63,256 nucleotides of DNA from a virus. Its lineage: Duplodnaviria; Heunggongvirae; Uroviricota; Caudoviricetes. Each line of letters begins with the position of its first letter. Positions within the stretch are counted from its first letter, which is position 1. A program made the position numbers and the translations under genes. The stretch is from the IMG/VR virus record IMGVR_UViG_3300025575_000276. One strand, given 5' to 3'. Positions 1 to 18,200 of this stretch are shown in pieces. The notes below the pieces were generated by a model. That model saw nothing but the letters and a program-made list of their open reading frames with translations. It was not told where the DNA came from and did not search any database.

Positions 1-1455
1 ATGCCAAGTTTTAGATTAAAAAGGCCAAATTCTACTACCGATACGGCCATAAAAATGTACTGTTACCTTTATGGTAGGATAATAGCAATCTATACAGGAA
101 AGACAATACACCCTGATTTCTGGATAAAAGAGGATCAACGTGCTACTGAAAATAAGAAGAAATTTTTAAAAGGTAGAGCAATTAATTTTGAACTGGGTAG
201 GTTAGATAGGATTGCTTCAGATTTGATATCTAAAATCCAAAAAGAAGATACTTTAATTTCTGACGATAAGTTTAGAGACTTGTTCGAAAAGGAAGCTTTC
301 CCTAAAAGATCTGTACCTAAACCTGCCTTAGAATCAAAGACAAAAACCAAACTTAACCAGAAAGAGCAAATAAAAGTAGCTAAACCTGAGAAGAAGTTAG
401 AGATATCTTCGTTCTTTTCTACTTATGATGATTACTTAAAAGGTCTAAAGGTTTCTGTTGTTAGGAAGAGGCATGTAGTCGGGGTGAGGTGGATGATGCA
501 TAGGTATGAGTTGTATATGAATATGGTTTCCTCCTACCCTTTTGAGTTCTCTATTGATACTATTACTGGAGATATGATTAGGGACTTTGAAGACTTCCTT
601 AAGGTAGAGCATGAACTGTTCGCAGATTTTCCCAAACTTTATGTAAAGACTTCTACTAGAAGTAAAACAAGGAAACCATTGAAACGAGGCCCTAATAGAA
701 TTATCAATATAATGAAAGCATTCAGGTCTTTTATGATTCACTGTATTAACGGTGGCCTAACTGCAAACGATCCATTTAAAAGTAAGATCAAGATTACTAC
801 ACTAAAAGGTAAGGAAGTTAAGACAGTTATTACAGGTTATGAAATTGGATCTGAAAAGTACGGAGATCCAATCTACATAACGATCAAAGAACGCAACTCT
901 TTATATAAGTTCGATTTCACAAAACATCCAGAATCAGAGATACAACGAGACATATTTATTTTCCAATGTCAAATAGGTTGTAGGGTTGGTGACTTGTACG
1001 AATTTACTTATTCAAATATTATCGATGGTGTACTACATTTTGTACCAGGTAAAACCGAGGATGAAAACCCAGCAACAGTAAGCGTACCATTAAATGAAAC
1101 CGCACAGGTGCTTATAAAAAAGTATATGGGTAAAACTGAAAGTGGAAAGTTATTCCCATTTATTCCGAAACAAGAGTATAATGATGCAATAAGATTAATA
1201 TTTAATATGGCAGGTTTAACACGTAAAGTTATGGTAAGGGACAGTGTAACAGAAAAACTAGTAAGCAAATCACTTGATAGTATTGCTTCATCCCACATGG
1301 CAAGGAGAACATTTATTGGAGGGATATACGATAAAATTAAAGACCCAAGTTTAATAGGTTCTATGACCGGCCATAAAGAAGGTAGTAAAGCTTTTAACAG
1401 GTACCGACATATTGATGATAAGATAAAAAGAGACACACTTAAGTTAATGGAATAG
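1..1455 (+). CDS. int: Tyrosine recombinase / phage integrase (Bacteroidota type, N-terminal arm-binding and SAM-like core-binding domains)
   Basis: Catalytic residues are intact and in order: GCRVGDL (R), PGKT (K), SHMARRTF (HxxR), MTGH (H), FNRY (Y). The 484 aa length and N-terminus resemble Bacteroidota mobile-element integrases. Confidence 0.93.
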   Translation: MPSFRLKRPNSTTDTAIKMYCYLYGRIIAIYTGKTIHPDFWIKEDQRATENKKKFLKGRAINFELGRLDRIASDLISKIQKEDTLISDDKFRDLFEKEAFPKRSVPKPALESKTKTKLNQKEQIKVAKPEKKLEISSFFSTYDDYLKGLKVSVVRKRHVVGVRWMMHRYELYMNMVSSYPFEFSIDTITGDMIRDFEDFLKVEHELFADFPKLYVKTSTRSKTRKPLKRGPNRIINIMKAFRSFMIHCINGGLTANDPFKSKIKITTLKGKEVKTVITGYEIGSEKYGDPIYITIKERNSLYKFDFTKHPESEIQRDIFIFQCQIGCRVGDLYEFTYSNIIDGVLHFVPGKTEDENPATVSVPLNETAQVLIKKYMGKTESGKLFPFIPKQEYNDAIRLIFNMAGLTRKVMVRDSVTEKLVSKSLDSIASSHMARRTFIGGIYDKIKDPSLIGSMTGHKEGSKAFNRYRHIDDKIKRDTLKLME

Positions 1456-1496
1456 TGTAGTTTACTAGGATATATTATTTAATTTTCGTATATTAA

Positions 1497-2093
1497 GTGG
1501 AAACACTACTTAATATGCTGACAAAAGAACAATTACAAAAGGCTGCAACTAAGTATAATATTTCATTATCTGCTATACAATCTATAATAGCAGTAGAGTC
1601 AGGTGGATCAGGGTTCCTTCCCGATGGTCGGCCAAAGATTTTATTTGAGGGACACATTTTCTGGAAAGAACTTATAAAGGTAGGTATCGATCCAAATAAG
1701 TTTGTTGCCGGAAATGAGGATGTCTTATATAAGATATGGACAAAGGAGCATTATGTTGGTGGTGCCGGTGAACATGCACGATTGGCTAAGGCTAGCCTGA
1801 TCAACCGGGAGGCAGCCCTTAAGTCTGCCAGTTGGGGCCTGTTTCAGATCATGGGAGGTAATTACATTTCCACTGGCGATAAGACTGTAGTACAATTTGT
1901 ATTAGAGGAATCTGCTTCTGAATTGGAACAACTATACGACTTCCTTAACTTCATTACAAGTACAAATCTGATCAACTACCTTAGAGTAAAAGATTGGGCA
2001 AGGTTCGCAGCCGGATATAATGGCCCGGCATACAAGGCGAATAGTTATGATACTAAACTCCAGAATTACGACAATAAGTTTTCAGCAGCTTAA
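1497..2093 (+). CDS. Endolysin, N-acetylmuramidase (DUF3380/PF11860-like)
   Basis: Motifs IIAVESGGSGF, RPKILFEGHIF, SASWGLFQIMGGNY, WARFAAGYNGPAY. Catalytic domain only. The true start may be the in-frame ATG at 1515. Confidence 0.9.
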   Translation: METLLNMLTKEQLQKAATKYNISLSAIQSIIAVESGGSGFLPDGRPKILFEGHIFWKELIKVGIDPNKFVAGNEDVLYKIWTKEHYVGGAGEHARLAKASLINREAALKSASWGLFQIMGGNYISTGDKTVVQFVLEESASELEQLYDFLNFITSTNLINYLRVKDWARFAAGYNGPAYKANSYDTKLQNYDNKFSAA

Positions 2094-2133
2094 AAGAAAA
2101 AACCCTCAGAATTTATCAGAGGGTTTTTCTTTT
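2092..2133. terminator. Bidirectional rho-independent terminator
   Basis: Stem AAAAACCCTC (2098-2107) / GAGGGTTTTT (2119-2128) with A and T tracts, lying between convergent genes. Confidence 0.75.
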
Positions 2134-2141
2134 CATTTGTT

Positions 2142-2354
2142 CTATCCAGCAACCTGTAGCCTTAGCATAGTCTTCAAACTTTTTGAGTGCTTCGTCTCTT
2201 CCACCCAACTCATAACCATATCTGTCTGCTCTTTTGCCTGTTCCAAGGACAATGGTTGCTTCAACATTTCTGACACCTCCTTCACTCCTTCCTTGTTCTT
2301 CCTTCGGGAGTAGTCGTTTAAGAGTTCTGGTTCCTTCGATGCCTTTTTCTTCAT
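2142..2354 (-). CDS. Small hypothetical protein (70 aa, charged)
   Basis: ATG start with an AT-rich leader, ends next to the terminator. No recognisable motif. Confidence 0.5.
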   Translation of the reverse strand: MKKKASKEPELLNDYSRRKNKEGVKEVSEMLKQPLSLEQAKEQTDMVMSWVEETKHSKSLKTMLRLQVAG

Positions 2355-2488
2355 AATTTTAGTTCTATTGAATTCAATTTCAAATACAACGTTTGATCTA
2401 TAAAATTAGAAATAAAAACTTTACAGAAGAAAAGAAATTCAATTTCGTTTCATAATGAATGTTCTTGTGATGCTAGTTAATTCACTGA

Positions 2489-2551
2489 ATGAATGGGGGA
2501 GTTCACGACCGGTTCAGGGAGGATTGGCTGAAATGTCCATGCCTACTCGAC
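2489..2551 (+). mobile_element. Degenerate group II intron 3' end (partial domain V plus domain VI)
   Basis: ATGAATGGGGGAGTTCACGACCGGTTC-AGGGAGGATTGGCTGAAATGTCCATGCCTACTCGAC. The DVI stem GGGAGG/CCT-A-CTC has a bulged A 7 nt from the end, a GAAA loop and a terminal AC. The 5' strand of DV (catalytic triad) is missing. Confidence 0.6.
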
Positions 2552-2595
2552 CCCCATATTTCCCTCAAATGCCTCTCTTGTACCCAATTTACATT

Positions 2596-4239
2596 CTATT
2601 TATGTTGAAAAAGCCTGATTACTTTTTTATCAAAATCCAATGCATAAATATCACCTTCTGAAGTTACTGCCAAATCGGGTGCTACCTCTTCATCAGGAAA
2701 CTTTTCTGATGGAGCTACGACACTGTTGAACTCCCCGGATGGTTTATACACTTTTATCCTTACATTATTTTTCTCACTCGTTACAAACGAACCATCTGGC
2801 AAAAATGCTATATGGGCGGGATTGCAACATCCCCAAAATCCTTCTATTCCTTCTTCGTCATTCGTCCAGAAGGTCCGGAATGTTCCTGAATCCTGATATT
2901 GCTCCAATGCACGCTTTCCGGGATTTACAACCCAGAGTTCTCCATCGTGGTTAAAGGCAAGATCAAAATAGGGACTTGGAACAATGAACCAATGTGTGTC
3001 GTCTTTGCTCGCTTTCCCTTCAAATGCATCCAGATATTTTCCAGCAGTAGAATATCTGATTACTCTTCTGTTTCCTGCATCTGCTGCAAAAAGAAGTTTC
3101 CCTTTCACGGCTAAAGATGTGAGAAACGTTTTTTTATCAAGTGGTGTCCAACTACCGGTTAGTTTACCTGAAAGATCATATCCGGCAACGAAATTGGTGA
3201 AACCAATAAAAATATTCTTGTCGGTCACGGTTATGCAGGTAGGCGAAGCAGGCAATTTTGTTTTGATCACTTCTTTGCCATCAACTGTTATTACCTGTAA
3301 CAGGCTATCTGATATGATGTAGAGTTTTTGGTTGGCATAGGCCAGTCCTTTCGGGGTTTGGGTATTGAGCCTGATGTTTTTTGTCTCTTTATAATGAACC
3401 TTTGTCGAGTCAGTAGATTTGAATTTGACAACATTGTATCCATAAGGATTGACAGCCCTGTTCTCCTGATTACCTATATCCGTTTTATTGTCGGCTGATA
3501 CCGGTATCCTATTGACGATTGCCCTATATGGAGAGAAATTAAATAACTTATCAAAATCATTCTTTTTTAATTCAAAATAATTGTTGGTAAGAGGTAAAGT
3601 GGTAGAATTATTTCTATCCCAAGGAAGAATATTAAATCTTACAATCTTTTCACCCTTCAAGATTTGAGAATTTATATTAAAGAAACTTTCTCCTTTGCAA
3701 ATATTTGAAGTAGAGTCCGAATCCTTTCCTAAAAGCAAAAGCCTAATCATTCTTTTGTTTTTTATTACTTCTTCGGGATCAAAAGAAAATGGTACTGCAA
3801 GTATTTTATAATAATATTCACAATACTCTATAGGCAAAGCTTTATAGAATTGTCCATCAGCTGTATTTACAATTTTCTTTAATTGCTCTAGGCTATTATT
3901 TGTAAAAGCAAAAACTTTAATTTGAGTAGAATCATATTTTGCCTTCAAAAAATAAAAGATTTTGCCTTCCAATGTAAATTTAAATAATTGAAGTGATTCA
4001 AAGCCAGCATCAGGACAACAAGGCAAATAACTTCTATTTGATGTTAGATCAGATTGTTTCCAAAATTTCTCTTCTTTATTTTCGAACCTAGACCAACCAG
4101 AAATATTTGTGAGTTTCTCAGATTGAGCATCCATGCGTAATTGTAATTTTGGTATTTTTTCATTAACTCTTTCTTGACCATAGGAATGGGAAAAAGAGAT
4201 TAAGCTAATGCATAATAATATGTACAATTTACTTTTCAT
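2596..4239 (-). CDS. Secreted protein with C-terminal NHL-like beta-propeller; apparent chimera
   Basis: Signal peptide MKSKLYILLCISLISFSHSYG. C-terminal repeats (LAVKGKLLFAADAGNRRVIRY, LAFNHDGELWVVNPG, GCCNPAHIAFLPDGSFVTSEK). The 5' half is visibly more AT-rich than the 3' half. Confidence 0.7.
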   Translation of the reverse strand: MKSKLYILLCISLISFSHSYGQERVNEKIPKLQLRMDAQSEKLTNISGWSRFENKEEKFWKQSDLTSNRSYLPCCPDAGFESLQLFKFTLEGKIFYFLKAKYDSTQIKVFAFTNNSLEQLKKIVNTADGQFYKALPIEYCEYYYKILAVPFSFDPEEVIKNKRMIRLLLLGKDSDSTSNICKGESFFNINSQILKGEKIVRFNILPWDRNNSTTLPLTNNYFELKKNDFDKLFNFSPYRAIVNRIPVSADNKTDIGNQENRAVNPYGYNVVKFKSTDSTKVHYKETKNIRLNTQTPKGLAYANQKLYIISDSLLQVITVDGKEVIKTKLPASPTCITVTDKNIFIGFTNFVAGYDLSGKLTGSWTPLDKKTFLTSLAVKGKLLFAADAGNRRVIRYSTAGKYLDAFEGKASKDDTHWFIVPSPYFDLAFNHDGELWVVNPGKRALEQYQDSGTFRTFWTNDEEGIEGFWGCCNPAHIAFLPDGSFVTSEKNNVRIKVYKPSGEFNSVVAPSEKFPDEEVAPDLAVTSEGDIYALDFDKKVIRLFQHK

Positions 4240-4325
4240 ATCAATTTTTTTTTAATTAATAATAGAGTTGTGATCTATAAATACAAATGCACAATTATGG
4301 TTGTCAAAATAATTTGAAAATATAA

Positions 4326-5186
4326 TTATAAACCTTTCAATTTCTCCTCTAATTCTGCTTTTTTCTCCTCTAATTCTGCTTTTTTCTTTTCATTTATGAT
4401 TTCTGCTTTTACAATAGAATCCTTTTCAGCTTGTGTATTTTTTTTTAAAGAATAAAAGACATCTCGTCCAACAAGGAAATAATTGGGTTTATTATTTCCC
4501 ATCGTCAAGATATTTAACGTACCTAAATAAGAAACTAATTTTTCAGAGGGATATTTAAGTAATAATTCCTTATTAAAACGCAAAAAAAGTTCAGTTCCAA
4601 TACCCGTTTTATCTGAATATAAGGGTGATTTTTGAATTGGACCTTCCAAGTATATTTTAATATTCGCAATTGACCCATCAATTGCAGGAGATATTTCATA
4701 TGTCCCAATTGCTCTACTTAATTCTATACCATTATTGGTTAGTACGCGAAAAGTGAAGAGAGTATCATTAAAATTAAAAACTATTATCGATTCTTGGTTT
4801 GTTGCCGTATAGAAAGCATTTGACATTAGAATTTCTTTTGTCTGAGCTATTAATTTGTCTTCCAAAGGGTTGGGTGGTTCTGCTTCATCAACAACCTCCT
4901 CTGGTTTATTACTTATTTCATTGTAAATCTTTTTATATAAGGCGCCAAATTTGAGTCCTCCTCCATCTAGGGGATACTTTTTCTGAAATTCATCAATAAG
5001 TGTTTTTAATTCTGTGCCAAGTTTTTCGGATTCAGGTAAAAGTGATTTATCTCCTGATTCAATTTTCTTTTGGATTTGAACTGCTTTCAAAGTTAGTTCT
5101 GCAAGCTCTCTTGCATCTTTTTGCATTTCGTTTTCCCCACAGCTCATAAGGATGAGAACAATAGCAAATAATAAAAAGTTTTTCAT
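4326..5186 (-). CDS. Predicted lipoprotein of unknown function
   Basis: Lipoprotein signal MKNFLLFAIVLILMS-C followed by charged residues. Coiled-coil C-terminus. Confidence 0.7.
   Translation of the reverse strand: MKNFLLFAIVLILMSCGENEMQKDARELAELTLKAVQIQKKIESGDKSLLPESEKLGTELKTLIDEFQKKYPLDGGGLKFGALYKKIYNEISNKPEEVVDEAEPPNPLEDKLIAQTKEILMSNAFYTATNQESIIVFNFNDTLFTFRVLTNNGIELSRAIGTYEISPAIDGSIANIKIYLEGPIQKSPLYSDKTGIGTELFLRFNKELLLKYPSEKLVSYLGTLNILTMGNNKPNYFLVGRDVFYSLKKNTQAEKDSIVKAEIINEKKKAELEEKKAELEEKLKGL
4341..4382. repeat. Perfect 21-bp tandem duplication (KKAELEE x2)
   Basis: TTTCTCCTCTAATTCTGCTTT occurs at 4341-4361 and 4362-4382. Confidence 0.9.
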
Positions 5187-5329
5187 AAAACTAGATTATC
5201 GCCTATTTGTTTAAGTGTCCAATTTAAAGTCAGGTCTGAAAAATAAGCTTAATGGGATATGTTTTAGCCCCGAATAGATTAGAAAGTATATCTTCAAACC
5301 AAAGTGCATTTTTTTGTTTCATAGCTTAA

Positions 5330-5337
5330 CAAATGTA
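5330..5337 (-). promoter_or_regulatory. Bacteroidota sigma70 -7 element (TAnnTTTG)
   Basis: TACATTTG on the minus strand, about 145 bp upstream of the lipoprotein start. Confidence 0.45.
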
Positions 5338-5727
5338 AATATATAAATCCAGAAGTCAATTATTTTATTTTTTTAGAGGTATTTTTTTGGAAAGTATTGT
5401 TTCAAGAATTGAGCAGCTTCTAACTCTTTGATATAAATATCATATATAATTGTATGTCAACATAATATGATTATATAAAAAATAATAAAATGATTTTTAC
5501 CCATCCTTGGATATCAATATCGTATAATTTATTTAAAATCCATTGAAAAAAATGTTATACCATCAATATATGGATGATTTCTGCAATCTGAATATGTTCT
5601 TTAGTTCCCTTTCTCAATAATAAATAAGGTAAAGACAATCAATCAGAAACTTGATGCGCTTATAAATAATTTTGTGAATGGATAACTTTCATTCGGAAAT
5701 TTATTAGTTTTACAAAAAACAACAACT

Positions 5728-5982
5728 ATGAACCCTGATGTAATAGCACAAAAAGCCATCGAAAAATTAAATAAAAAAATCACAAATGAAGTTTTTCTGA
5801 TTATTCAAAGCGACAAAGATCTTATGTACAACTACCTAAAGGCTGTTGAAGAGAAAGGTTTAGATGTTGTTAATCAAGCAATTGGATTTGAAGTAAAAAA
5901 ACAATATAAATTGGTAAACATTAACGACCGGGAAGAAAATCCTTCTTGCACATTAATTAAAAGCCATCAAAAATTTGAATAA
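5728..5982 (+). CDS. Small hypothetical protein (84 aa)
   Basis: ATG preceded by an A-rich leader (AAAAAACAACAACT) typical of Bacteroidota. Followed by a strong hairpin. Confidence 0.65.
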   Translation: MNPDVIAQKAIEKLNKKITNEVFLIIQSDKDLMYNYLKAVEEKGLDVVNQAIGFEVKKQYKLVNINDREENPSCTLIKSHQKFE

Positions 5983-6025
5983 TTCATTTTGTCTTTTAAC
6001 CCTAAGTACACTATGTCAATAATGG

Positions 6026-6063
6026 AAATGAGAAAAATGGGACCAGCCCCATTTTTCTCATTT
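6026..6063. terminator. Perfect 16-bp hairpin between convergent genes
   Basis: AAATGAGAAAAATGGG-accagc-CCCATTTTTCTCATTT. Confidence 0.6.
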
Positions 6064-6112
6064 TAGCATTTCCATGAAGACATAAAATGAGGTCACCCTT
6101 TTGGGATGGTCT

Positions 6113-6149
6113 CAACGTCAACCCGTCTGACGCAAAACGCATGTTAGCC
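6113..6149 (-). promoter_or_regulatory. attC-like half site (R'' core GGCTAAC plus left arm)
   Basis: Minus strand GGCTAACATGCGTTTTGCGTCAGACGGGTTGACG, 21 nt after the stop of the 262 aa gene. Complementary to GTTAGCC upstream of the same gene. No matching right arm found. Confidence 0.45.
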
Positions 6150-6170
6150 ATTCGCTCTTTCTGATTTTCT

Positions 6171-6959
6171 TCAATACTTATAAAAATATCTTTTCACTAC
6201 ATAATTATAATTTTCTTCGCCTAAGAATTCCTCGTTTTTATTTATGTATTCACTTGCAGATAAAAACCCAAAGTATTCAACCCGTTCATTAACTTTAATA
6301 TCTTTCAAAAATTCATCTACAATTTTTTTAAATTTCGCAATAGTCTCCTTATAGTTCGTCAAGTCCTGCTCAAATCTGGTTGAGAACGGATTATCAAAAC
6401 AAAAACTGTATAGTTTAAACTTCTTGTTAACATATTCCGGCTTATTCATGATGTTGATTATTCCAAGAAGATGACTACAAAGCTGCTTCACCCCTCCGCC
6501 ATAGATTTTTTGATCATCAAAACTTTTAATGACCTTTTTCAAAAACTTAATAAAGGGGTCTGAAATAGCCGGGCACATGTATTGTGTTTTATCAAAGTAT
6601 TTTTCTTTAAAATCAATTTTGCCTAATTGGATTATTTCAAAAGCCTTAACTTCAAATAGTTCAATTGTATTTGTTGTTTCATTATTAAGCTTTACATCAA
6701 TTTGTGCATCTCGGTCGAATACCTCCATGTGAAATTCAAACTCCAAAAGTTTACTGTTCACGCCAGAAAATACATTGTAAGCAAAAGCTTGTGAACTTTT
6801 TAAACTTCCAGCCCACCTGTGATATTCAAACTCTTTGGGTGGAGTGGTTATGAAATTTTTCGTTCTATTCTTAAGAACAAAATTGTGTTTGTTATCTGTA
6901 ATTAAGTTATTCTTAAACCCTTTAACTACAAAATTCTCTATTTCTTTTTTATAATTCAT
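6171..6959 (-). CDS. PD-(D/E)xK restriction-endonuclease-like protein (PGN_0703-like)
   Basis: HRWAGSLKSSQAFAYNVF, then QIDV...LFEVK (D...ExK), then KQLCSHLLGI. No methyltransferase nearby. Confidence 0.6.
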   Translation of the reverse strand: MNYKKEIENFVVKGFKNNLITDNKHNFVLKNRTKNFITTPPKEFEYHRWAGSLKSSQAFAYNVFSGVNSKLLEFEFHMEVFDRDAQIDVKLNNETTNTIELFEVKAFEIIQLGKIDFKEKYFDKTQYMCPAISDPFIKFLKKVIKSFDDQKIYGGGVKQLCSHLLGIINIMNKPEYVNKKFKLYSFCFDNPFSTRFEQDLTNYKETIAKFKKIVDEFLKDIKVNERVEYFGFLSASEYINKNEEFLGEENYNYVVKRYFYKY

Positions 6960-7000
6960 ATTGTTCGGTTTTTGAATTCATCTCGTTTTTTAAGAGTGAC

Positions 7001-7040
7001 GGCTAACTCATATATACGCCTGACAAAATCAGACCTATGC
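7001..7040 (-). promoter_or_regulatory. attI/attC-like R' core (GTTAGCC) at the cassette start
   Basis: Minus strand ...GTCAGGCGTATATATGA-GTTAGCC-GTCA, 41 nt before the ATG of the nuclease gene. Confidence 0.4.
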
Positions 7041-7245
7041 AATGAAATTTGGGTGGATAGGCCTTTTAGATATCAGATTTATCTTGTAAAGATAATATTA
7101 CAAATCATCGAAAGGAGATTTTATTTTCTAAAAACTTTTTTCAGTTACATGTGTGTAAATCTCAGTTGTTTTTGAACTCTTATGTTCCAATAATTCTTGT
7201 ATATACAATAAATATTTTCCAGATTGGAAGAATAATGAGGTCAGC

Positions 7246-7427
7246 GTGTGCTAAGAGAGAGTGTGTTTGTACTGAATTAATGATAGGGAGGCCGTAACTG
7301 GTTTCCGGGAGCAGGCTATAAATACCACAAAACAAATTAATGACTACTTATAACAGAAGCCATATCTCTGCAAATGTTCACCACATGTTCAAAGAGGCTT
7401 GGGTTGAAATGCCTTTGCCTACTCGAC
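7246..7427 (+). mobile_element. Internally deleted (about 182 nt) group II intron remnant retaining both ends
   Basis: Starts GTGTG (GUGYG). Continues ...GTGTTTGTACTGAATTAATGATAGGGAGGCCGTAAC..., resembling a domain I start. Ends AGAGGCTTGGGTTGAAATGCCTTTGCCTACTCGAC, a DVI stem AGAGGC/GCCT-A-CT with bulged A at -7 and AY end. No RT ORF. Confidence 0.6.
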
Positions 7428-7467
7428 CCCCACCTTAAGGGGCAGAACAGCAAAAAAGTTTATTAGT

Positions 7468-7563
7468 ATGACTGATGAAAATTTAATCCATAAGGGAACT
7501 ATTGATTTCTCCAAGCAAATTATTGTAGCATTTAAAATACTTAAGAAAGCAAAAATGCAGTAA
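7468..7563 (+). pseudogene. 31-codon ORF, possible four-helix-bundle protein N-terminal fragment
   Basis: Translates as MTDENLIHKGTIDFSKQIIVAFKILKKAKMQ*. Loosely resembles the start of 23S rRNA-IVP/Avd-like four-helix bundle proteins. Confidence 0.2.
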
Positions 7564-7604
7564 ATGAAAAAAAAACCTCAGAGTAATCTCCGAGGGTTTT
7601 TCAT
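7564..7604. terminator. Rho-independent terminator ending the giant-gene operon
   Basis: TGAAAAAAAAACCTC-AGAGTAATCTCC-GAGGGTTTTTCA immediately past the 1553 aa stop. The long A tract gives a U tract on the minus strand. Confidence 0.75.
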
Positions 7605-7606
7605 TT

Positions 7607-10600
7607 TTATTTGGATTGTTCGGTTACGTACCGTTGAATATCGGTACCCATTTTGAAAGGTCCTAAGAAGGAAGATACTGCCCTCCATCCTTTACTATCA
7701 GCATCCCCATCATCTTTCCATAGTTGGTGTAACCCACTATAAGTATTCCTAGCTACTGATAGCATAGGAAAAGGTGATGCAGTCAATTTGTACATGGACT
7801 GTGCTTGTGCTATCAGGTACGACTCATCGAGAGATCCTGACAACATCATAAATGCCATCGTCTTGTTATCTCCCGGCTTGTTAAACATCGAGGCAACAAT
7901 AGCAGAAAGTCCTCCGATAATGGCAAGAGAGTACGCAGTCTGCATGACAGCTCCCCTCTGATCTGGGTGAAGGTTTTTCCAGTATTCCGCAAACCCTTCC
8001 ATATCTTTGTCTTTTACACAATCATGGAGTTGCATACCCATATCTTTAAGGGTATACCACATACCTTCAAAGTAACCATCCTCATTATGGTAGGTTACTG
8101 TATGGGAAGTTCCGTCCTCATGCATTACTTCCTTTGTTCGTTGTTGGGAGTAATGAGGATTGATCTGTCCTCTTGTAAGCCACTTGTCGAGTTTAGAAGC
8201 TAACCAACCGTTCATCGATCCAAAGGTTCTTCCGATAGCCCACTGTTTATACAGAGCTTGGTCAACCTTATCCATGGAGAAGAATAACATGTTGGCCTTA
8301 TGCTTTAGTTCCATCGATTCTTCCATTGTATAAGGAACTTTCATCGTACCATTTTCACGTAGGAGTCCTTGCTTGGCCATAATTTCTTTTGTCTCAGTAA
8401 GTCGTTTTTTACCATCCGGACCATCAAACCTAGTATCTAAATTCTCATCATACTCCCAAGTATCTCCAACTTTTTTATAAGCTTTAATAGTACCGTCCAT
8501 TTCCATTCTGGCACCAACCATAACAGCCCTATGGAAGTAGTCACCTGCTGTATGGGCGATACTACCAAACTGAGTAAAGTGTCTTGTACCAATCTTAAAA
8601 CGACCATCACCGGATAGTTTTTCTACGTCCTGATCAGCAAGGTTCATATTTGACATGATATCGTGATATAAGGCACCATCACTTCCTTTAGCTGAGGAGA
8701 TCAACTGAAATGCTCTTACGTAAGATTTACCGTAGGCTTTTAAACCGGCAGCATCTCCCCTTCCGTATGCCTTTGCAAGTTCCTCTCCAAAAGTCATAAA
8801 ATGTCCTGCAATCATATTCTTTATTGCGGAACTAAGTCTAAATGATACCATTGAAGATGCAGCCCAACCACCAGCAACAACAAGTGTCTTTTCAAGTGTA
8901 GGATCTCCGACCTGGTGTTCGTCAAACAGGGATCCCTTTACAGCAACATCAAGGTACTTTAAAGTGTTCTTGTAATCATTCCGGTTGTTGTAAGTTTGAC
9001 CACTGGCAATCAAGACTTGGCGTACAGCATGGTACAAAGGAATTAACTTTCTGTTCTCTTCAACCTTAATACTGTTTGCAGTAAGGGTGTCGAGTACACG
9101 TTCTAGGTTAGTCTCAACATAGGACTTTTCAGTAGGGTCAATTACCCATTCACTCTGTTCATTGCGAACAAGTCCCATTCGTTTGTACCTAGTCTCTATA
9201 CTTTTAGACGCCTTTCCTTTTAACTTGAAGAAGTCCGGGATATCCCTACTGTTATGTGTTAGTGCCTCGAAACTTGACTCATAGTTCTGGTACTGACTTA
9301 ACCAACGATCCTTAGCAGCTCCAAGTTTACTCCAGAAACTTTCTCCAGTACCTGTGTCATGGGTCAACTTATATTTCATATTGTTCATACTGGATTTAAG
9401 TAAGGGTATCCACCCTTCTTCCCAATAGTCTTCGAAATGAGTTGCCTGTTCAGGTGTTGCATTTCTCAAGAGGTTCTTTTTTACTTCTGCATTGAATGTC
9501 TCAATGAATTCCTTTTGAACGGAATCAAGGGCATTATATTCAGTAGATCCTTTTGGCCAGAACCTTCCGACAAACCTTTTCTCTGTCTTTTCACTACCAA
9601 GAATTTTAAAATCCCTTTTCTCAAGTAATGGTTCGAACTTAGTAGTTGTATCTCCTAGAGTGTAATTCCTAATTGTGTTCCCGATATTATCCAGTCCATA
9701 AACCTTTGTGAATATCGCTTCCTTCTTTGATAGGTACGAGTTTTTAAACTCGTTCTCAACCATTCTGGAGGCTATCTTCATCCTTTGGATATACTGGTCA
9801 ACAATACCAACTCCTGTCATACCAGCAAGGGAGGCATAAGTTTCTCTTAGTCCACCAATGTCCTGAGCATTCTCAGTATCGTTACGGATGCCATGGTAGT
9901 GTGCAATAGCATTTGCCAGTAACTTATACTCGTAGGTATTCATATACGCCTCTGACTTAACGTCCTCTCCCATAAGTCTTCTCTGAAGAACGTTAAGAAG
10001 TTTTATAACATCATCTCTTTTAGTATCATCTGCAACTAACTTATCCGCCAAATCTCGAACTTGTTTTGGAGACATTGCATCAATATTACCGAATACTTTC
10101 CTGACAAACCCTTCTCCCATGAACGATACAAATTTAGGGTTAACGTCTGTAACATCAACCTTAGGCCTACCTTCTCTTAAAGCTGAACCATGTTCAATCT
10201 CTACACCTGTTTGGTGAGCATTTGCCAAATAGGAGATCAGGAAGGACACTTCATTCTGGTGGTAGTCCTCAGGAATTAGTAGATCGTCTTTGGCCAGAAG
10301 ATCTTTGAACTCCTGAGGGAAGTCTTTTATTGCTGAACCGCCCTCTGTCTTCAGAGACCTTAGAACTTTCAGGTGTTTGAAAATATTGGATAGGCTGTCG
10401 GAAACATACGGATTGTGCGTTTCATAGTTTGTATGGGAGCCAACGATAACATTGCTTATCTTGATGTCTGGAAAGGCCTCCTTTAGTTTCATTGCCATGA
10501 TCCCCATTTTCATAAACCTATCGTTACGATTAGTCCTATCGTACAAACGAATAGTCTGAACACCTTCCTTTACAATGGCATTTTTTACCGTATGTAGTGG

Positions 10601-12268
10601 AACAGAATTACCAAATATGTTTTTGAGTTCTCTGGTGTTAACAGACTTGTCGATAACATCTTCTTTCACTGACTCTCCATCTACAACACTATAAAGTACA
10701 ACACTAGCGAAAGACTTATCATTTGGATCATAATCCCTGAAAACAATTACAGCATCACTACCAAAGTTTTCAAATCCCTTCAAAGTGTTGGCAGCTACTG
10801 CAAAATCAGTTTCATTTAAACCAGATGTGAGTTTATCAAGTTGGAGTTTTCTTTGGGAAGTTTTATCACTCCCAGTATAATCTTTTCGTGATGTCTTGAT
10901 GAAGGAGGATTGACCAAAATTAATGTACTGTGCAAAGTCCTGACCGACATTATCAGACCCGGTGTCTGGAATAAGATCGTAGTATTTTTCAAGTTCTTTT
11001 AAACGTGCAGCATCACCTACTTTTGTTGTGTCCTTTAATGCAACCTGATCTTTAAACCTTACACTTAATCCTGCAATATCATTGTAATGGTGTAGACCAT
11101 TGAAATTTCTTACATAGGTTCTGTTTGCCCTTGCCTTTGAGGAGTTGTCAATAGTTGTACCTAATCCGGTTAGTCTTCCAAGGGAACTAATGTTTAGTGA
11201 TCCCTTAACTTCGATACCACCAACAACATCAGCAACACTTTTATCAAGTGGTATATTTGTACCCACCCATGCTTTGTGTACTGTTGAGAGATTACCAAAA
11301 AAATTAGCATCGTCAATGTCGTATATTACTGGTTTCGATAGGTCACTGATCGTTTTAATTTCTTTACCTGTGCTGTCTCTAAGAGGTTTTCCATCAGCAC
11401 CTAATCTCTTAGTAACATCTCCTTCAAAATCCAACTTAACAAAAAACAGGTGACTCTTATCTACGGTTAGGGAAGGCATATCAAGGTTGGGATCTCCCCT
11501 TCTTAGGAACTCCCTATATATGGTCTGTTGTAAATTGTTACTTCGAGACTTGCTGCTTTCAACTGTACCTTTATCAGCCTCAGCATACTCATGGAGTGAG
11601 AACTTATGGTCATAGGTGTTGATTATTCCATCAGGAGTAACCACAACAATATCCAACGTACCTCCGATACCGTGTGGTGCATTGATGTCTTTAAAAGTCA
11701 TTGGTAAGGTAGATGCTGTCCTGATCTCACTCAACACAACATTTTCCCTCCTATTAGTACCAGGTAGTTTAGGATTGAGTGTTGTTTCGTACAAATCTTC
11801 AAGGTATGTTAGCCATTTTGAAGCCGGTACTTCTAACTCAGATTTGTGAACATCGTCAATATACTTGTAGTCGTTCTTCTTCAGGTCTATGCCTTGTAAA
11901 GGGTGTTTACCTTCATTCATGTTTTTCAACAGAAGGTCAGCCATCCAGTGAAAGTAACTACCTGCATCCCTAGTAGGGTTCTCAGCAGACTCGTCCCCGG
12001 CAGGACCTTTCCATGGGTACATTGCACTTACGATAGTTGAAGTTGGAACAAGTATCTCCTTTTCGCCCTTTACAGTTCGTGAGTATTCATGTAGTCCCTC
12101 GTCAAAATTGATTGCTGCATGGTTCTTGAGAAGAGCAGCGACTATCTCTTTTTGATCGGCAAGAGTCTTACCGCTAAACCTTACACCCAGAGAGTTCCCC
12201 AGAATGTAATCGTCCAAGTCCTTTTCGGACTTGAACGTTAAACCTTTGTAATTAAATACACATCCCAT
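7607..12268 (-). CDS. Giant virion-associated (ejected) protein with an N-terminal PD-(D/E)xK nuclease-like domain
   Basis: HGIGGTLDIVVVTPDGIINTYDHKFS motif (about 11601-11675). Third gene of the giant-gene triad typical of crAss-like phages. Helical, partly hydrophobic C-terminus. Confidence 0.65.
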   Translation of the reverse strand: MGCVFNYKGLTFKSEKDLDDYILGNSLGVRFSGKTLADQKEIVAALLKNHAAINFDEGLHEYSRTVKGEKEILVPTSTIVSAMYPWKGPAGDESAENPTRDAGSYFHWMADLLLKNMNEGKHPLQGIDLKKNDYKYIDDVHKSELEVPASKWLTYLEDLYETTLNPKLPGTNRRENVVLSEIRTASTLPMTFKDINAPHGIGGTLDIVVVTPDGIINTYDHKFSLHEYAEADKGTVESSKSRSNNLQQTIYREFLRRGDPNLDMPSLTVDKSHLFFVKLDFEGDVTKRLGADGKPLRDSTGKEIKTISDLSKPVIYDIDDANFFGNLSTVHKAWVGTNIPLDKSVADVVGGIEVKGSLNISSLGRLTGLGTTIDNSSKARANRTYVRNFNGLHHYNDIAGLSVRFKDQVALKDTTKVGDAARLKELEKYYDLIPDTGSDNVGQDFAQYINFGQSSFIKTSRKDYTGSDKTSQRKLQLDKLTSGLNETDFAVAANTLKGFENFGSDAVIVFRDYDPNDKSFASVVLYSVVDGESVKEDVIDKSVNTRELKNIFGNSVPLHTVKNAIVKEGVQTIRLYDRTNRNDRFMKMGIMAMKLKEAFPDIKISNVIVGSHTNYETHNPYVSDSLSNIFKHLKVLRSLKTEGGSAIKDFPQEFKDLLAKDDLLIPEDYHQNEVSFLISYLANAHQTGVEIEHGSALREGRPKVDVTDVNPKFVSFMGEGFVRKVFGNIDAMSPKQVRDLADKLVADDTKRDDVIKLLNVLQRRLMGEDVKSEAYMNTYEYKLLANAIAHYHGIRNDTENAQDIGGLRETYASLAGMTGVGIVDQYIQRMKIASRMVENEFKNSYLSKKEAIFTKVYGLDNIGNTIRNYTLGDTTTKFEPLLEKRDFKILGSEKTEKRFVGRFWPKGSTEYNALDSVQKEFIETFNAEVKKNLLRNATPEQATHFEDYWEEGWIPLLKSSMNNMKYKLTHDTGTGESFWSKLGAAKDRWLSQYQNYESSFEALTHNSRDIPDFFKLKGKASKSIETRYKRMGLVRNEQSEWVIDPTEKSYVETNLERVLDTLTANSIKVEENRKLIPLYHAVRQVLIASGQTYNNRNDYKNTLKYLDVAVKGSLFDEHQVGDPTLEKTLVVAGGWAASSMVSFRLSSAIKNMIAGHFMTFGEELAKAYGRGDAAGLKAYGKSYVRAFQLISSAKGSDGALYHDIMSNMNLADQDVEKLSGDGRFKIGTRHFTQFGSIAHTAGDYFHRAVMVGARMEMDGTIKAYKKVGDTWEYDENLDTRFDGPDGKKRLTETKEIMAKQGLLRENGTMKVPYTMEESMELKHKANMLFFSMDKVDQALYKQWAIGRTFGSMNGWLASKLDKWLTRGQINPHYSQQRTKEVMHEDGTSHTVTYHNEDGYFEGMWYTLKDMGMQLHDCVKDKDMEGFAEYWKNLHPDQRGAVMQTAYSLAIIGGLSAIVASMFNKPGDNKTMAFMMLSGSLDESYLIAQAQSMYKLTASPFPMLSVARNTYSGLHQLWKDDGDADSKGWRAVSSFLGPFKMGTDIQRYVTEQSK

Positions 12269-12269
12269 A

Positions 12270-15200
12270 TTAACACTTTTTTTCTAAAGTTTTACTTTTA
12301 TACATTCTATCTTTAATGCTCTGGAGTTTTTCATTCAGATACCCAGTACCATAAAGGTCACTAAGGTCTTCCCTATTGGCTGAAGTAAGGTTGTCGAAAT
12401 AGCCTGAGAGTTTGCCACCGTCAATCATTTCCTTTGCAAGTTTAGCTACTGACATCTCAGCAGTTGCACCAGGAGAAAGTAACGATAATTTCTCAGAAAT
12501 CCAATTCAAATATGCATTTTGATTGCCTAACATGTCAAATGTTCCATCAGAGGATTCTCCAACCCATTCTGCAAATGCTTCTTCACCGACTATCTCAGGA
12601 GAGTACTCTGGGTGTTCTGCTTGGATCCGTTTACCTTGTTCAGTCTTGGCCCATGTATCTACTATCCTAGAGTAAAGTTCTGGTTTAGCCGGTTTTATTG
12701 CATTCAACCATACGTGAGATAACTCGTGCATTGGAGTATCTATGGTATTAAGACCGGAGTTGATATAAATAATACCGTCATGTGCAAATCCTTTCTTATC
12801 CAATAAGGATAGTGGAAGGTCTCCATTCAGGATATCCTCATTAGTAATGATGCGAACCTTTACACCGAAGGTGTCTCCTGCAAGCCTAGAGAAGTTTCCA
12901 AGCATCTTACTATTTAAAGTGGATGTCTGACCTACTCGGTTAGTGATCACATGATCAGAAGCATCTGAGACACTTTTAACCAGTGTATACTTTGGTTTAT
13001 TGATATCTGCTTCCTTAGGGAAATACCTACTCGATAGGATGGTTACTTTACCATTTGTCCCGGATATGGCCTTATGGAGTCGAACATTTCGACTCTCTAC
13101 ATCAGGATCTGAAAAGATACTGTCTTCGTGAATGTACAGGTTATCATGTTTTCCTTTAAGTGTGTCAGGAGTTACCGCATATCCGAAGTTGTAATCAGTT
13201 CCAAGTGTACTGAACTTACTGTAGAATGCCTCCATGTTTTGAGCAAGTTCCTTCTCAACTCTAGGAATACCTTTTAACGACTCAAAGTATTTCTTAGCTT
13301 GATCCAGATCCTTAGCATTGATCTCCAAACTATCTGCATCAGCAAGGAAGACTGTCTTTGATTTACCTGAAGAATCCTTGGTCTCTAAAGTAGTTCCAGA
13401 AAGATCTATCTCCTTTTTTAGTGGGGAGATTATAGTCTTAGTGGATTTACGAGCACTTGTCACATGGAAATCTTCTCCGTTTGCATCGGTAAGTACCTCA
13501 CCTTTATGGATAGTGTCCAAATCATTACCGAACATTTTCTTACGAACTTGCTCATTAATAGTATTGGCCTCTTCCTGAGTACCGGCAACTATCTTTGAAG
13601 TTTTTGGATCACCGGAAGTAAACTCATCAACAATATTCGTTTTGTTACTGAACTCTACTCCCTGTCCATTTCCATCAATACTGGACACTCTACTGATAGG
13701 ATCTTCGGAGAACTCATTACTCTCAATACTATCTAAAAGTGATGCTATAGGACTGGATTTAGGCTCTATGTGGTGTTCTACGATAGGTTTCTCTACAGGA
13801 GTTTCCTCTCCATCGAAGTTGGTTTGAGGTACTGGTTTTGTAGATACATCGGGAACCGAAAGAACACTGTCTAAGTTCCCAGTATGACCAAAGACTGTTG
13901 CATATATCTTACCTACTGTCTCAGTAAAGTCATTCCAAACAGATTTTCCAGATCCCTCATAGGGAGAAGGAGTTTCCTTTATGGACTCCTGGTATTTTTT
14001 ATCCGTGAGGGCATCTGATAGGAAGGTCTGAGCAGGAGTGTGTTCTACGGCACTAGCCAGTTCCTCAATATTACTTTTGAACTCCTCGTTGATTTTAAAC
14101 TCAGATTGGGTTGTAGCAGAAGTCAACTCATGGATGAATGCATTCTCTATGTCAAGGGTTGGGGTATTTCCCATAACAAAGAAAGTGTTTGACTCAGGAT
14201 CATACTTACTAACCCACTCATTTTGTATGCCGTGGTCAGAGTTATACTGTCTCATAAAAGGTGAGTCCACCACTTTAACCTGAGACGACTGGATTGTACT
14301 GTCCGCATTATCAAGTATTTTCTCGGCCAGTGATTTATTCTCAGGAGATACTCCAACTTCAGAATACTTCTCGATAAAATTTGAAGTGCCTGTAACTATA
14401 TCGTCTGCAAAGTAAGTGTCTTTAAATCCTTGGTTAAAAGGAGCTAAAGGACTTTCATAAGTACCACTATCAACTCCCTGACGACCTTCTGGAGCCTGTA
14501 CGAAACTACCATAACCCGGCATTGCAATAGGTGTTTTCCCATCAACGTCATAACCAGTTGCTGTGTGTCCTGCTGTGAAGATTTTCAAAGGCTTATCAAC
14601 AGACGAGAATACAGGTTTTGGAAGTGAGTTTATCGTTTCCTTCTTAGCATTAGCAACGGCCTCTTTAGATCTTTTTAGTAGGAACTCATTAAATCCATTT
14701 TCAGTTTTAGCCGGGGCAGGATTGATAACAACCTCACCTTTGGCCCAACGTGGATCAGAGTAGATCGAATTGTCAAAGGTTCCAGTTTTAAACGACTGAT
14801 AGGCATGTTCTACAGAGTAAAATAACTTGTTGTTCTTATCTATGAACTTGTTGACTTCAGCATTTTCAGGAGATAACGTTCTACCTGTTTCATCTTCTGT
14901 AGTTACCTTTTTAGGAACTTCAGGTGTAACTTCTTTGGGTTTCACAACTTCAAATTCAACAGCATACTCAAGACCCGGACTAAGTTTACCGAAACCATTT
15001 GCGGACCAACCTTCTTTATGCCAGTTAGCCTCAAACCTTGGATCAGATTTATCATAGACAGCAGTTACCCTTGTGAGGATAGACTTAGTAGTTCCATTAA
15101 CACTCTTACCAAACTGGTGAATGTAGGTACCAGGTTTAAGATCGTAACGATCCTCACCGTCCTCTCCCTCGATTTTACCATACTTGGCTATTTCCTTACC

Positions 15201-18200
15201 ACTTCTAGTTGTACGTGTTCTGAAGCCGGCCTCAATCATGTCAATAGAGAAGGCATTCTTACCTAACTTACTGGCAGCAACTTCAGAATTAACACTTTGG
15301 GTTTTTCCCCATTTATTTGCAGTATCGCCTTGAAGGTTCTGAGGAATGTTGTTTTCTCTAATCCGAGAGTTAGCTTGGTTCATACCTTCCTCATAGTTAA
15401 GAGGTGAGAGTTTAACCTCACTGGGCTGTTCATTGATCTTTGTTCCCGGACTTTTCCACACACCTAAGATTTGACCATCGTAAGGTTGCTCACTGTAGAC
15501 ATAACCATTCTTTTTTAGATACGCTGAAAGTTCTACCTCGCCTGTATTGTATGGGTTTGATTTAAGGTACCGTTCACTATCCTTAACAATAGTTGCCCCA
15601 GCATCCATAGCTTTGTTCAACTCAGTCTTTGTTTGGGTTATGTTGGAGTTCCATTCCTTCAAAGATTTGGCCCCATTCCTTTTACCATTGGCAGATAAGA
15701 ACACAACATCATCTTTGGTATACTTCCCAGAGTTAACAATGCTAGCTGCTTCGGATGATATTTCACCTGTATCAGTATTAGTGTGTTTAAGGTATATCTG
15801 ATCACCATACAATTTAGTGGAGCTACCTTCATTTCCAAATCCGATATACTTGTTCGACAGTTCAGCTTTAGTAATAGCTTTTTTATCCACAGCCTTATCA
15901 GGAGTTACGGAGAACACACCCTGCTTTTTAAGTAGGGTTTCTCTACCATATTTAATATCCTGTTTTTTATCAGGCGAATTTACAAGACTAGCTCTCCTAA
16001 ATCTGGGTTGTTCATCTCCATCCATAAGGTGACTATTGTCTGAATTATCGTCAAGATTTTGAGCAGTCTTTGAATAGTTGAGTTGTAGTTCACCTTTGTC
16101 CGTTATTGTAAAAGGCATAATAGTGGCTAGGTCATTCGTATTGCTGACCTTTTTATATACAGTTGTTTTTTCCCCGGTCTCATCGTAGTCAGTTCCTTTC
16201 TCGTAATACTCAGATTTTTTAGTGTCCTTGTTATACAGTTTTACCTTATCTGGAGTAGTATAGTCAGTAGCTTTTGGAAGTGATTTAACTTCTTCATACT
16301 CTTGGAGAGAAAGGTCAGATACCATACCCGACAGTACTCCCATGTCTAAAACTATAGTATTTGTTGCTTGACTATTTTTAAACAATCTGTTCGGACTAAC
16401 ACTGCTTAGGAAGTCATTGAAATCTTGATGGAGGTTAGTATTCATCAGGTCATAGAATGATCCAGAGACGTTATTAAACGAACTCATAAGTAATGAGTAA
16501 TTGAAGAGTACCTTTTGGTCCTTTACATCAATGTTCTTCAAACCAGTTTTGAGCATCATAATAACCTCATCAGAAGTATTCCTAGTATCCATGGTTCGAT
16601 AGACTGTAAAATCCTTACCAGTGAGGGTATCCCTTGAGTTAGATGCAACTAGTTTTTCAACAAAGAAGTTCTCTGGGTACTTCTCTCTAAGTTTGGTTAC
16701 AAACCCTCTGAAATGATCCAAGAACTGAAGGGAGTTTCCATACTCATTAGTACTCTTTGTTGCATTAAACTTGTATGTTCTAACTGCATTGGGATCATTA
16801 TCATCGTACTGAACATCCACAGGGCGGTTTCTGAAGTAAAGTATTTTAAGGTACTTTTCAGCAGTACGCCTAGCTCTAAGGAATAGGTTCTCATCATTTA
16901 ACTTGTCCTTGTCAAACTTGTCCATAATTAAATGGGTCAGTGCAACAGTACTTGAGAGTTCAGAAATCATGTCCTTACCTTTTTGGTAGTACTTCATGTT
17001 TGAGTGATAATGCTCATTGTCTGAGAATACTCTAAGGGGGTTTACGATAATTCTAATTCTATCGTATGCATCAATCATCTTGTCCCTATAAGTAGGGTTG
17101 TTTAGGAAGGTTGTAAAGTTAAAGTCCCTAAGAGTTTTTACAGCAGATCCATTAGTCCTATTCTCAGAACGATCCTTCGCACCTTTAATAAAGTCCTCGA
17201 TTTTACGACTATAACTATACACATCCTCACCTTTATTGGGGAATTTTGTGTTTACACTTAAGGATTTACCAACGAACTGAAACTCCTTTGCCATTCGGGA
17301 CACCTTAATAATGTCTTCATAACCTTTGGTTTTATTGTAGACAATATCGCCAAGAATTTGTTTCAAAGACACCCCTTCAGATTTTGCCCTTTCCTGCAAC
17401 TCAATCATCTTGGGTTGAGTAATAAAAGCAACAGCTCTTTCAATAGGACAACCTACAGCCACTAAAGCATTGAGGAAGTTTCCTGTATCAAGATCGGCAT
17501 TCAACCTACCAAGATAGAGAAGTTTAGCATTATCAGTAGCAGCGTTAATAAGACCGGAATATTCTGACCATGCCTGTCTTTTGATTGCCCCATCTTTTCT
17601 TGCATTTATTAGAGCCTTCTTTACCTCTAAGACTTCCTCAGGATGCATCTGGCTAAGTATGTCTATATTAGACAAGTTAGCTATTTTGCTAAAGACAATT
17701 CCATCTTTGCCGTCTTTACCCCCAGGAATATTAACCTCGAAGGGTTTAAAGGAGTTCTTTATAATTGTTCCTCCCTCCTTCATTACCTGTTTCATTGCAG
17801 AGTAGTAGATAGCAAAATAAGCCTTTTCAGCAGTAGCTTCCACACCTACCATTTGCTTACCTCTCTGATTGATAACCGCCATAATGATAGTTGATAATGG
17901 GTTACTTGGACTAAAGAACATCTCGTTCTTCTCTCCCTTAACAATATTCCCCAAACTATCTGTATTTACGATTGATCCCTTCTCCAGTGCAACTTTTGGA
18001 GCAATGCCTGTCCTATAAAGAGTGTCTACAATGAAGTTCCTAACTCCTGACTCATACCATTCAGCATTTTTACCTTTGAAACTATCCTCAAAACTCTGGA
18101 ATTCTTCAGGGTAAAGTTGTTTGAACTGTGCTTTCGAAAGTACATTTCCAGTGCTGTCTACTTTATAAGGGTACGACATACCAGTATGGTTTAGGTTGTT

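Follow-up and report, generated by a model that had tools for sequence, protein, structure and literature searches.

A crAss-like phage with an intact tyrosine integrase, probably integrated at a tRNA-Arg gene of an uncultured Bacteroidia bacterium

RESULTS

Probable left end of a crAss-like prophage

The stretch of DNA analyzed here, referred to as the window, comprises 63,256 nucleotides (nt) of the IMG/VR virus record IMGVR_UViG_3300025575_000276. We read the window as the left, integrase-proximal part of a prophage that is crAss-like, measures at least 146 kb, and is located in the chromosome of an uncultured Bacteroidia bacterium at a tRNA-Arg gene, and assign to this reading a probability of roughly three in four. 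A first-pass annotation, made from the DNA letters alone, had proposed that a crAss-like lineage may integrate into a Bacteroidota chromosome. The host flank and the tRNA-derived junction described below support this proposal. The first position of the record is the integrase ATG, and its length is 146 kb or more, with phage genes extending at least 82 kb past the end of the window; start and length fit a provirus that was cut out of a 169,860-bp ENA contig (L017). The features discussed are listed in Table 1.

Table 1. Coordinates of the main features. Positions are those of the window unless a contig is named.
Feature	Position	Strand	Remarks
Att junction	L017:9706-9724		tRNA-Arg(TCG) 3' end; outside the window, 296 bp upstream of position 1
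Tyrosine integrase	1..1455	+	484 aa; probably Bacteroidota 'SAM-like + catalytic' type; PF00589 and phrog_1 matches
Endolysin (N-acetylmuramidase)	1497..2093	+	PF11860, E 1.8e-58; phrog_1224, E 6e-66; same orientation as integrase
Terminator-like hairpin, left island edge	2093..2133	.	After endolysin; inverted repeats I11 and I1
Cargo island	2134..7566	.	32.5% GC; without counterpart in the sister phage (L163, L164)
Terminator-like hairpin, right island edge	7567..7607	.	After 1553-aa gene; inverted repeat I1
Giant protein 1 (1553 aa)	7607..12268	-	Conserved beside the integrase-endolysin pair
Giant protein 2 (3667 aa), candidate virion RNA polymerase	12270..23273	-	DFDID at aa 1674-1678 (nt 18240-18254)
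crAss-type major capsid protein (468 aa)	51309..52715	-	phrog_11589 'major head protein', E 5e-24

Integrase and endolysin

The protein encoded at the left end of the window matched PF00589 in Pfam (E 1.1e-8; 35.5 bits, cut-off 27.1) and phrog_1 'integrase' in PHROG (E 1.3e-15). We aligned it with nine homologues of 38-94% identity. In this 10-sequence alignment, R328, K351, H432, R435, H458, and Y468 were invariant, confirming the full R-K-HxxR-H-Y set that had been claimed for this gene. With regard to the core-binding SAM-like domain and the N-terminal arm-binding domain of Bacteroidota integrases, the protein scored 18.4 bits against PF13102, which is under the Pfam cut-off of 22.3. PF13102 is carried by most homologues, typically together with PF00589, and homologue P0025 (45% identical) has PF17293. 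A total of 2707 homologues were found at E below 1e-10, and the nearest non-self one, P0024, was 52% identical. Used alone as a query, the integrase had no match in IMG/VR. A profile search of the same database returned 80 proviruses with integrases 37-45% identical to that of the window; these proviruses have no other gene in common with the window.

The adjacent gene encodes a phage endolysin, as shown by its PF11860 match. The previously noted distance of 41 bp between the two genes is correct for the GTG start of the endolysin and increases to 59 bp if the ATG at position 1515, the choice of gene callers, is the real start.

Host flank left of the integrase

An exact look-up detected the integrase on six contigs, one of them 0.2-1 Mb in size. 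Among the carriers is k141_289202 (ENA ERZ27294293), and source samples are SRR3989258, SRR3989260, the ERZ272942xx runs, and JGI 3300002101/2103/2839. Contig L017 and contigs L018, L055, and L056 from three JGI samples were 99.7-100% identical over host DNA, integrase, and endolysin. Host-side DNA and integrase are thus found together in at least four independent metagenome assemblies. Rather than a circular contig without host flanks, an outcome considered in the first-pass annotation, we found a contiguous Bacteroidia flank in all of them. The left neighbors of the integrase encode a cation efflux protein, a DUF3078 protein, an alpha-L-fucosidase, a MocA-type oxidoreductase, a 512-aa thioredoxin-family (Trx-like) protein, and a toxin-antitoxin pair. 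The gene for the Trx-like protein is 64-66% identical to genes of two Bacteroidia metagenome-assembled genomes (MAGs), and the fucosidase-MocA-Trx-BNR_2 synteny recurs in the phage-free Bacteroidia contigs L062, L064, L066, and L072. These MAG matches and the phage-free synteny show that the left flank is chromosome and not phage cargo. The guanine-plus-cytosine (GC) content is 35.5% in the host flank versus 39.7% in the phage backbone. A search for host genes or a tRNA left of position 1 had been proposed as a check, and both were found: the Bacteroidia genes and the 3' end of tRNA-Arg(TCG).

The BNR_2 neuraminidase gene was considered as the right host flank, based on strain L058 (94% identical), in which HTH_3 is directly followed by BNR_2. 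We dropped this candidate because the toxin-antitoxin module is mobile and lies on the other side of BNR_2 in L070. Searches with BNR_2 homologues, with cluster members, and in the JGI metagenome collection revealed conserved host synteny and no contig with a right attachment site (attR).

The host DNA contains, at L017:8876-9077 and hence some 0.9 kb before the window starts, an imperfect palindrome of 200 bp made of AGCCATAT units with 11-bp spacing. It contains four direct and two or three inverted copies of the unit, and a Logan contig breaks inside it. A small open reading frame (ORF) at L017:9403-9693, just left of the tRNA terminator described below, has a single in-frame TAA following codon 16, and may represent a host pseudogene or a candidate for read-through in the host.

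Attachment site at tRNA-Arg

The regions upstream of the integrase were aligned for L017, L163, and L165, the latter two belonging to a diverged sister phage (see below). Homology starts at the sequence AGTGAYCC, which corresponds to L017:9706 and lies 296 bp upstream of the integrase ATG. Left of AGTGAYCC, the three contigs show three unrelated contexts. In L017, positions 9668-9724 comprise a terminator hairpin and the last ~18 nt of tRNA-Arg(TCG), followed by phage DNA. The attachment (att) core GTGACCCCGATAGGGTT differs at one position from the 17 nt that terminate tRNA-Arg(TCG) at the 3' end in three Bacteroidia genomes. All three have a terminator hairpin adjoining the tRNA-Arg(TCG) end on the same side as in L017. 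The related host contig L062 has the L017 hairpin in common and ends there. Neither the hairpin nor the core of the window phage had a match in IMG/VR. A left boundary at L017:8860, deduced from homology to L073, was given up for L017:9706 in view of the alignment with the sister phage and of the match to the tRNA.

Between the core and the integrase gene, three GACCCCAA motifs are present at offsets of 144, 157, and 221/222 from the core in both phages. These repeats are candidate arm-type binding sites of the integrase.

At G048:C246:469-485 (locus L180), the tRNA-Arg(TCG) 3' end is present once more but lacks a tRNA body; the genome also contains the intact gene. This copy suggests that another element integrated at the same tRNA.

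A conserved integrase module in a sister phage

A second, diverged phage was found on contigs L163, L164, and L165, and P0024 is its integrase. Gene order and orientation are as in the window, with identities of 52% for the integrase, 76% for the endolysin, 43% for the convergent giant protein 1, and 40-58% for giant protein 2 (measured against the L163 giant). The giant protein 1 identity covers the entire 1553-aa protein of the window and was measured against genes of 1533 aa (L164) and 1423 aa (L163), and the distance between endolysin and giant 1 in L163 and L164 is only 70 bp. The same integrase-endolysin-giant order in a diverged phage indicates that the integrase is a conserved part of the phage, and not, as the first-pass annotation had also considered, that of a separate inserted element.

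The two copies of the sister phage in L163 and L165 are identical from AGTGAYCC rightwards and have two different left contexts. The 17-nt core of this phage, AGTGATCCGCCTGGGAT, corresponds to a tRNA-Lys-like gene at its 3' end and is likewise present at the termini of other temperate phages in IMG/VR. In L163, AGTGATCCGCCTGGGAT is directly repeated around a 6.3-kb island between the host genes and the integrase, a pattern that tandem use of one att site produces. This AT-rich island (L163:3399-9756) encodes a TPR protein, unassigned proteins of 759 aa and 306 aa, and a DUF2971 protein; it contains no integrase. Possible identities of the island are a satellite-like element and the remnant of a prophage that used the same att site.

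crAss-type virion and packaging genes

Apart from the integrase and endolysin genes, the window consists of one long minus-strand block with ORFs that include 1553, 3667, 2842, 1075, and 1887 aa. All giant and structural ORFs in the 63 kb, including those of 3667 and 2842 aa, are uninterrupted. In tblastn searches, the major capsid protein (MCP) matched annotated major head proteins of crAss-like phages (e.g., cr115_1 and cr4_1) at 21-23% identity, with E down to 4e-12. Its relatives in IMG/VR are 56-59% identical. Together with the phrog_11589 match, these hits bear out the earlier statement that a crAss-type capsid gene is present in the same DNA.

Rightward extension via contigs carrying exact window proteins yielded approximately 16 kb more phage DNA, with genes for the portal, a protein with a Cpn10 domain, and TerL, followed by an early region that varies between strains. 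TerL (L021:3023-5269, ~10 kb right of the window) matched phrog_6681 (E 3e-74). Its database matches were 139 phage records, essentially all of them crAss-like, at 26-37% identity and with a best E of 1e-125. The portal gene, located on contigs that carry window genes, matched phrog_6547 (E 9e-47). Judged by these similarities, the packaging and capsid genes are soundly assigned as crAss-like.

Between the TerL and portal genes, L021:5341-5970 (~7.5 kb right of the window) encodes a 209-aa protein with a Cpn10 (GroES) domain. The early region at L026:1-3100 (~13-16 kb right of the window) is divergently transcribed, and its genes include one of the Acb2/Tad1-hairpin (anti-CBASS) type and one with a RyR domain. 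This region is strain variable: the tested protein was found on a single contig, and the break point is shared by two Logan assemblies.

Giant protein 2 had been claimed to be a virion RNA polymerase. It contains the DFDID motif and has one weak match to the 'putative RNAP' of crAssphage ctbg_1 (33% over 110 aa, E 7e-4). In addition, aa 1632-1727 show a 35% match to G012, and the motif DFDVD is present in giant proteins of two other crAss-like genomes (G012 and the two genomes' context are described below). No giant protein of the window had a match in Pfam, PHROG, or PDB sequences. The motif and the ctbg_1 match speak for the claim, the database result does not, and the polymerase identity of the 3667-aa protein is only suggestive.

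A two-ended precedent in another crAss-like lineage

We searched with the MCP 401 genomes of the GTDB order to which G017, a Lac Pavin Bacteroidia MAG, belongs. One contig matched, C25 of genome G681. In this contig, a perfect 36-bp repeat at 8091-8126 and 90511-90546 bounds an 82.4-kb element (loci L182-L186), and the second repeat copy is the 3' end of tRNA-Pro(GGG). An integrase gene is located 84 bp inside the left repeat. The element further encodes TerL (29% identical, E 1e-43), a portal protein, an MCP (23% identical), and a 2830-aa protein with DFDVD. The flanking genes, for a DEAD-box helicase and a thioredoxin-reductase-like protein on one side and a protein with a type IX secretion system (T9SS) tail on the other, are those of Bacteroidota. 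The element is a complete crAss-like prophage and shows, in another crAss-like lineage, the two-ended architecture predicted here.

This element is like the window phage in its crAss-type TerL, portal, and MCP, in a giant protein with DFDVD (DFDID in the window), in an integrase near a tRNA-derived att site, and in its Bacteroidota flank. It differs in its integrase, which is 27% identical over the catalytic domain, in its half-sized genome, and in that both att sites are visible.

Another IMG/VR record, IMGVR_UViG_3300045988_079173 (G012; 136,166 bp; L156-L162), has, within its first 100 kb, a crAss-type MCP, a giant protein with DFDVD, and late genes recoded at TAG. The remaining 36 kb at its end use the standard code, have a higher GC content, and terminate in an integrase 42% identical to that of the window. 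Either G012 is a third integrase-bearing crAss-like genome, or it is a composite contig.

DISCUSSION

Proposed mechanism and alternative explanations

In the mechanism that we propose, the tyrosine integrase of the phage would recombine the phage attachment site (attP) with the host gene for tRNA-Arg(UCG), at its 3' end. The attP site would carry a copy of ~18-20 nt of the tRNA-Arg 3' end. Integration would leave a partial tRNA 3' end and the tRNA terminator beside the integrase, 296 bp upstream of its ATG, and a complete tRNA-Arg would be expected at the far junction. We infer that the integrase is still active, that attR is as predicted, and that the prophage can be excised and form virions. 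Evenly balanced, in our view, is the broader proposal that a whole sub-lineage of ~150-kb crAss-like phages is temperate. According to this proposal, a vertically inherited integrase-lysis module would have been retargeted between tRNAs (Arg here, Lys in the sister phage), the prophage would be intact and inducible, and lysogeny would coexist with a virion-delivered RNA polymerase.

Several observations weigh against the prophage reading. Neither attR nor a far-end repeat of the core (AGTGACCCCGATAGGGTT) was seen; the far end lies beyond the window and all loci obtained. The tRNA-Arg gene of the lysogen itself was not recovered, and the match to the core, with its one mismatch, comes from relatives. 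No contig with a circular attP or an empty bacterial site (attB) was found, and all contigs with the identical integrase or the neighboring HTH gene show the integrated form. No repressor or excisionase was identified in the window. Furthermore, 10 IMG/VR relatives, defined by their MCP, are without a PF00589 gene; five of these are rated 100% complete (152-176 kb), one of the five with terminal repeats. The absence of PF00589 from these relatives makes the integrase a trait of a sub-lineage.

The exclusively integrated configuration, the lack of attP or empty-site contigs of the same strain, and the extra cargo island at 2134-7566 would also fit a phage that integrated at tRNA-Arg and is now grounded or defective, with no excision and no virions. 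We consider this unlikely, because the structural and giant ORFs are open across 63 kb and the catalytic set of the integrase is intact. Moreover, the two left contexts of the sister phage imply recent mobility, and several samples contain contigs of the phage, whose early region varies between strains. Much less probable is that the integrase, with or without the endolysin and the island, belongs to a separate integrative element between host DNA and an unrelated phage. Positions 1-7.6 kb of the window are indeed without a homologue in the IMG/VR relatives G002, G004, and G011 and have a GC content of 32-34% compared to 39.7% in the backbone, and tandem elements at one att site do occur, as the core repeats flanking the L163 island show. 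However, in the sister phage the integrase-endolysin pair adjoins giant 1, and the four genes co-diverge at 43-76% identity. No copy of the att core (AGTGACCCC) is present between integrase and giants in the window.

The least probable explanation, with hardly any weight in our assessment, is that the contiguity of host and phage is an assembly chimera. Logan contigs break at L017:8951 and L017:9673, and GC content dips at 4-6 kb, but the same junction is present in the ENA assembly, whose contigs are named in MEGAHIT style, and in three assemblies that JGI made of different samples. The integrase and the tail-fibre gene are found on contigs of 0.2-1 Mb, and the layout of the junction is exactly that of an att site in a tRNA. 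Integration of a crAss-like phage at tRNA-Arg is the reading that we prefer.

Comparison with known crAss-like phages

crAss-like phages have been called incapable of lysogeny (PMC8375218), and those of the zeta group 'apparently lytic' (PMC12386605). For the epsilon group, repressor genes and two incomplete prophage-like sequences in Parabacteroides were reported (PMC11054128). A speculative remark hints at crAss-like lysogeny (PMC7886860), and crassphage itself was proposed to be a phage-plasmid (PMC10983915). In the papers covered by our literature search for temperate, lysogenic, or integrated crAss-like phages, no integrated copy with an att site is described.

The window phage resembles crAss-like phages (Crassvirales and the extended assemblage with PhicrAss001, Cellulophaga phi14:2, and the epsilon and zeta groups) in TerL, portal, MCP, a block of giant virion-type proteins, one of them with DFDID, and a Bacteroidota host. 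Its length of at least 146 kb is within the range of its complete IMG/VR relatives (152-176 kb). Pairwise identities to ICTV Crassvirales are low, with ~22% for MCP and 26-32% for TerL. Unlike the published crAss-like phages, it has an intact integrase and sits inserted in a chromosome. With the tRNA-targeting tyrosine integrases of temperate phages and mobilisable elements of Bacteroidota, it shares the integrase family, an att core at a tRNA 3' end, and the position of the integrase beside the junction. One homologue cluster of this family is named 'intN1' in JGI and 'Integrase [Caudoviricetes sp.]' in nr. A difference is that the integrase of the window is carried by a ~150-kb crAss-like genome. 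The window phage would combine a known kind of prophage, temperate and integrating into a tRNA gene, with a crAss-like virion and giant-protein module.

How crAss-like phages persist stably with Bacteroidota is a long-standing question. Published answers invoke a carrier state or phase variation, and in the case of the prototype a phage-plasmid lifestyle; classical lysogeny is described as absent. The locus provides a concrete case of chromosomal integration, with a defined att core, an intact integrase, a sister module aimed at another tRNA, and the two-ended tRNA-Pro example. Prophage-mining tools and lifestyle predictors should not equate crAss-type capsid genes with 'virulent'. The locus further prompts one to ask how a phage that would inject an RNA polymerase of its own keeps itself silent in the prophage state.

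Cargo island between endolysin and giant protein 1

In the sister phage the endolysin abuts giant 1, showing that positions 2134-7566 of the window are an inserted cargo island. A chimeric assembly between 2.1 and 7.6 kb had been named as a possible objection; the stretch is instead an insertion relative to the sister phage and lies between two terminators. The island ORFs encode proteins of 70 aa, 547 aa (an NHL-repeat protein according to Pfam), 286 aa, 84 aa, and 262 aa.

Most of the island is flanked by a 31-nt direct repeat (2526-2556 and 7402-7432; 87% identical). Interpretation of these repeats as part of a group II intron was discarded, since there was no Rfam intron match at E <=1. 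The repeat contains a perfect 17-nt core, TGCCTACTCGACCCCCA, which is present in 2 copies versus 0.06 expected.

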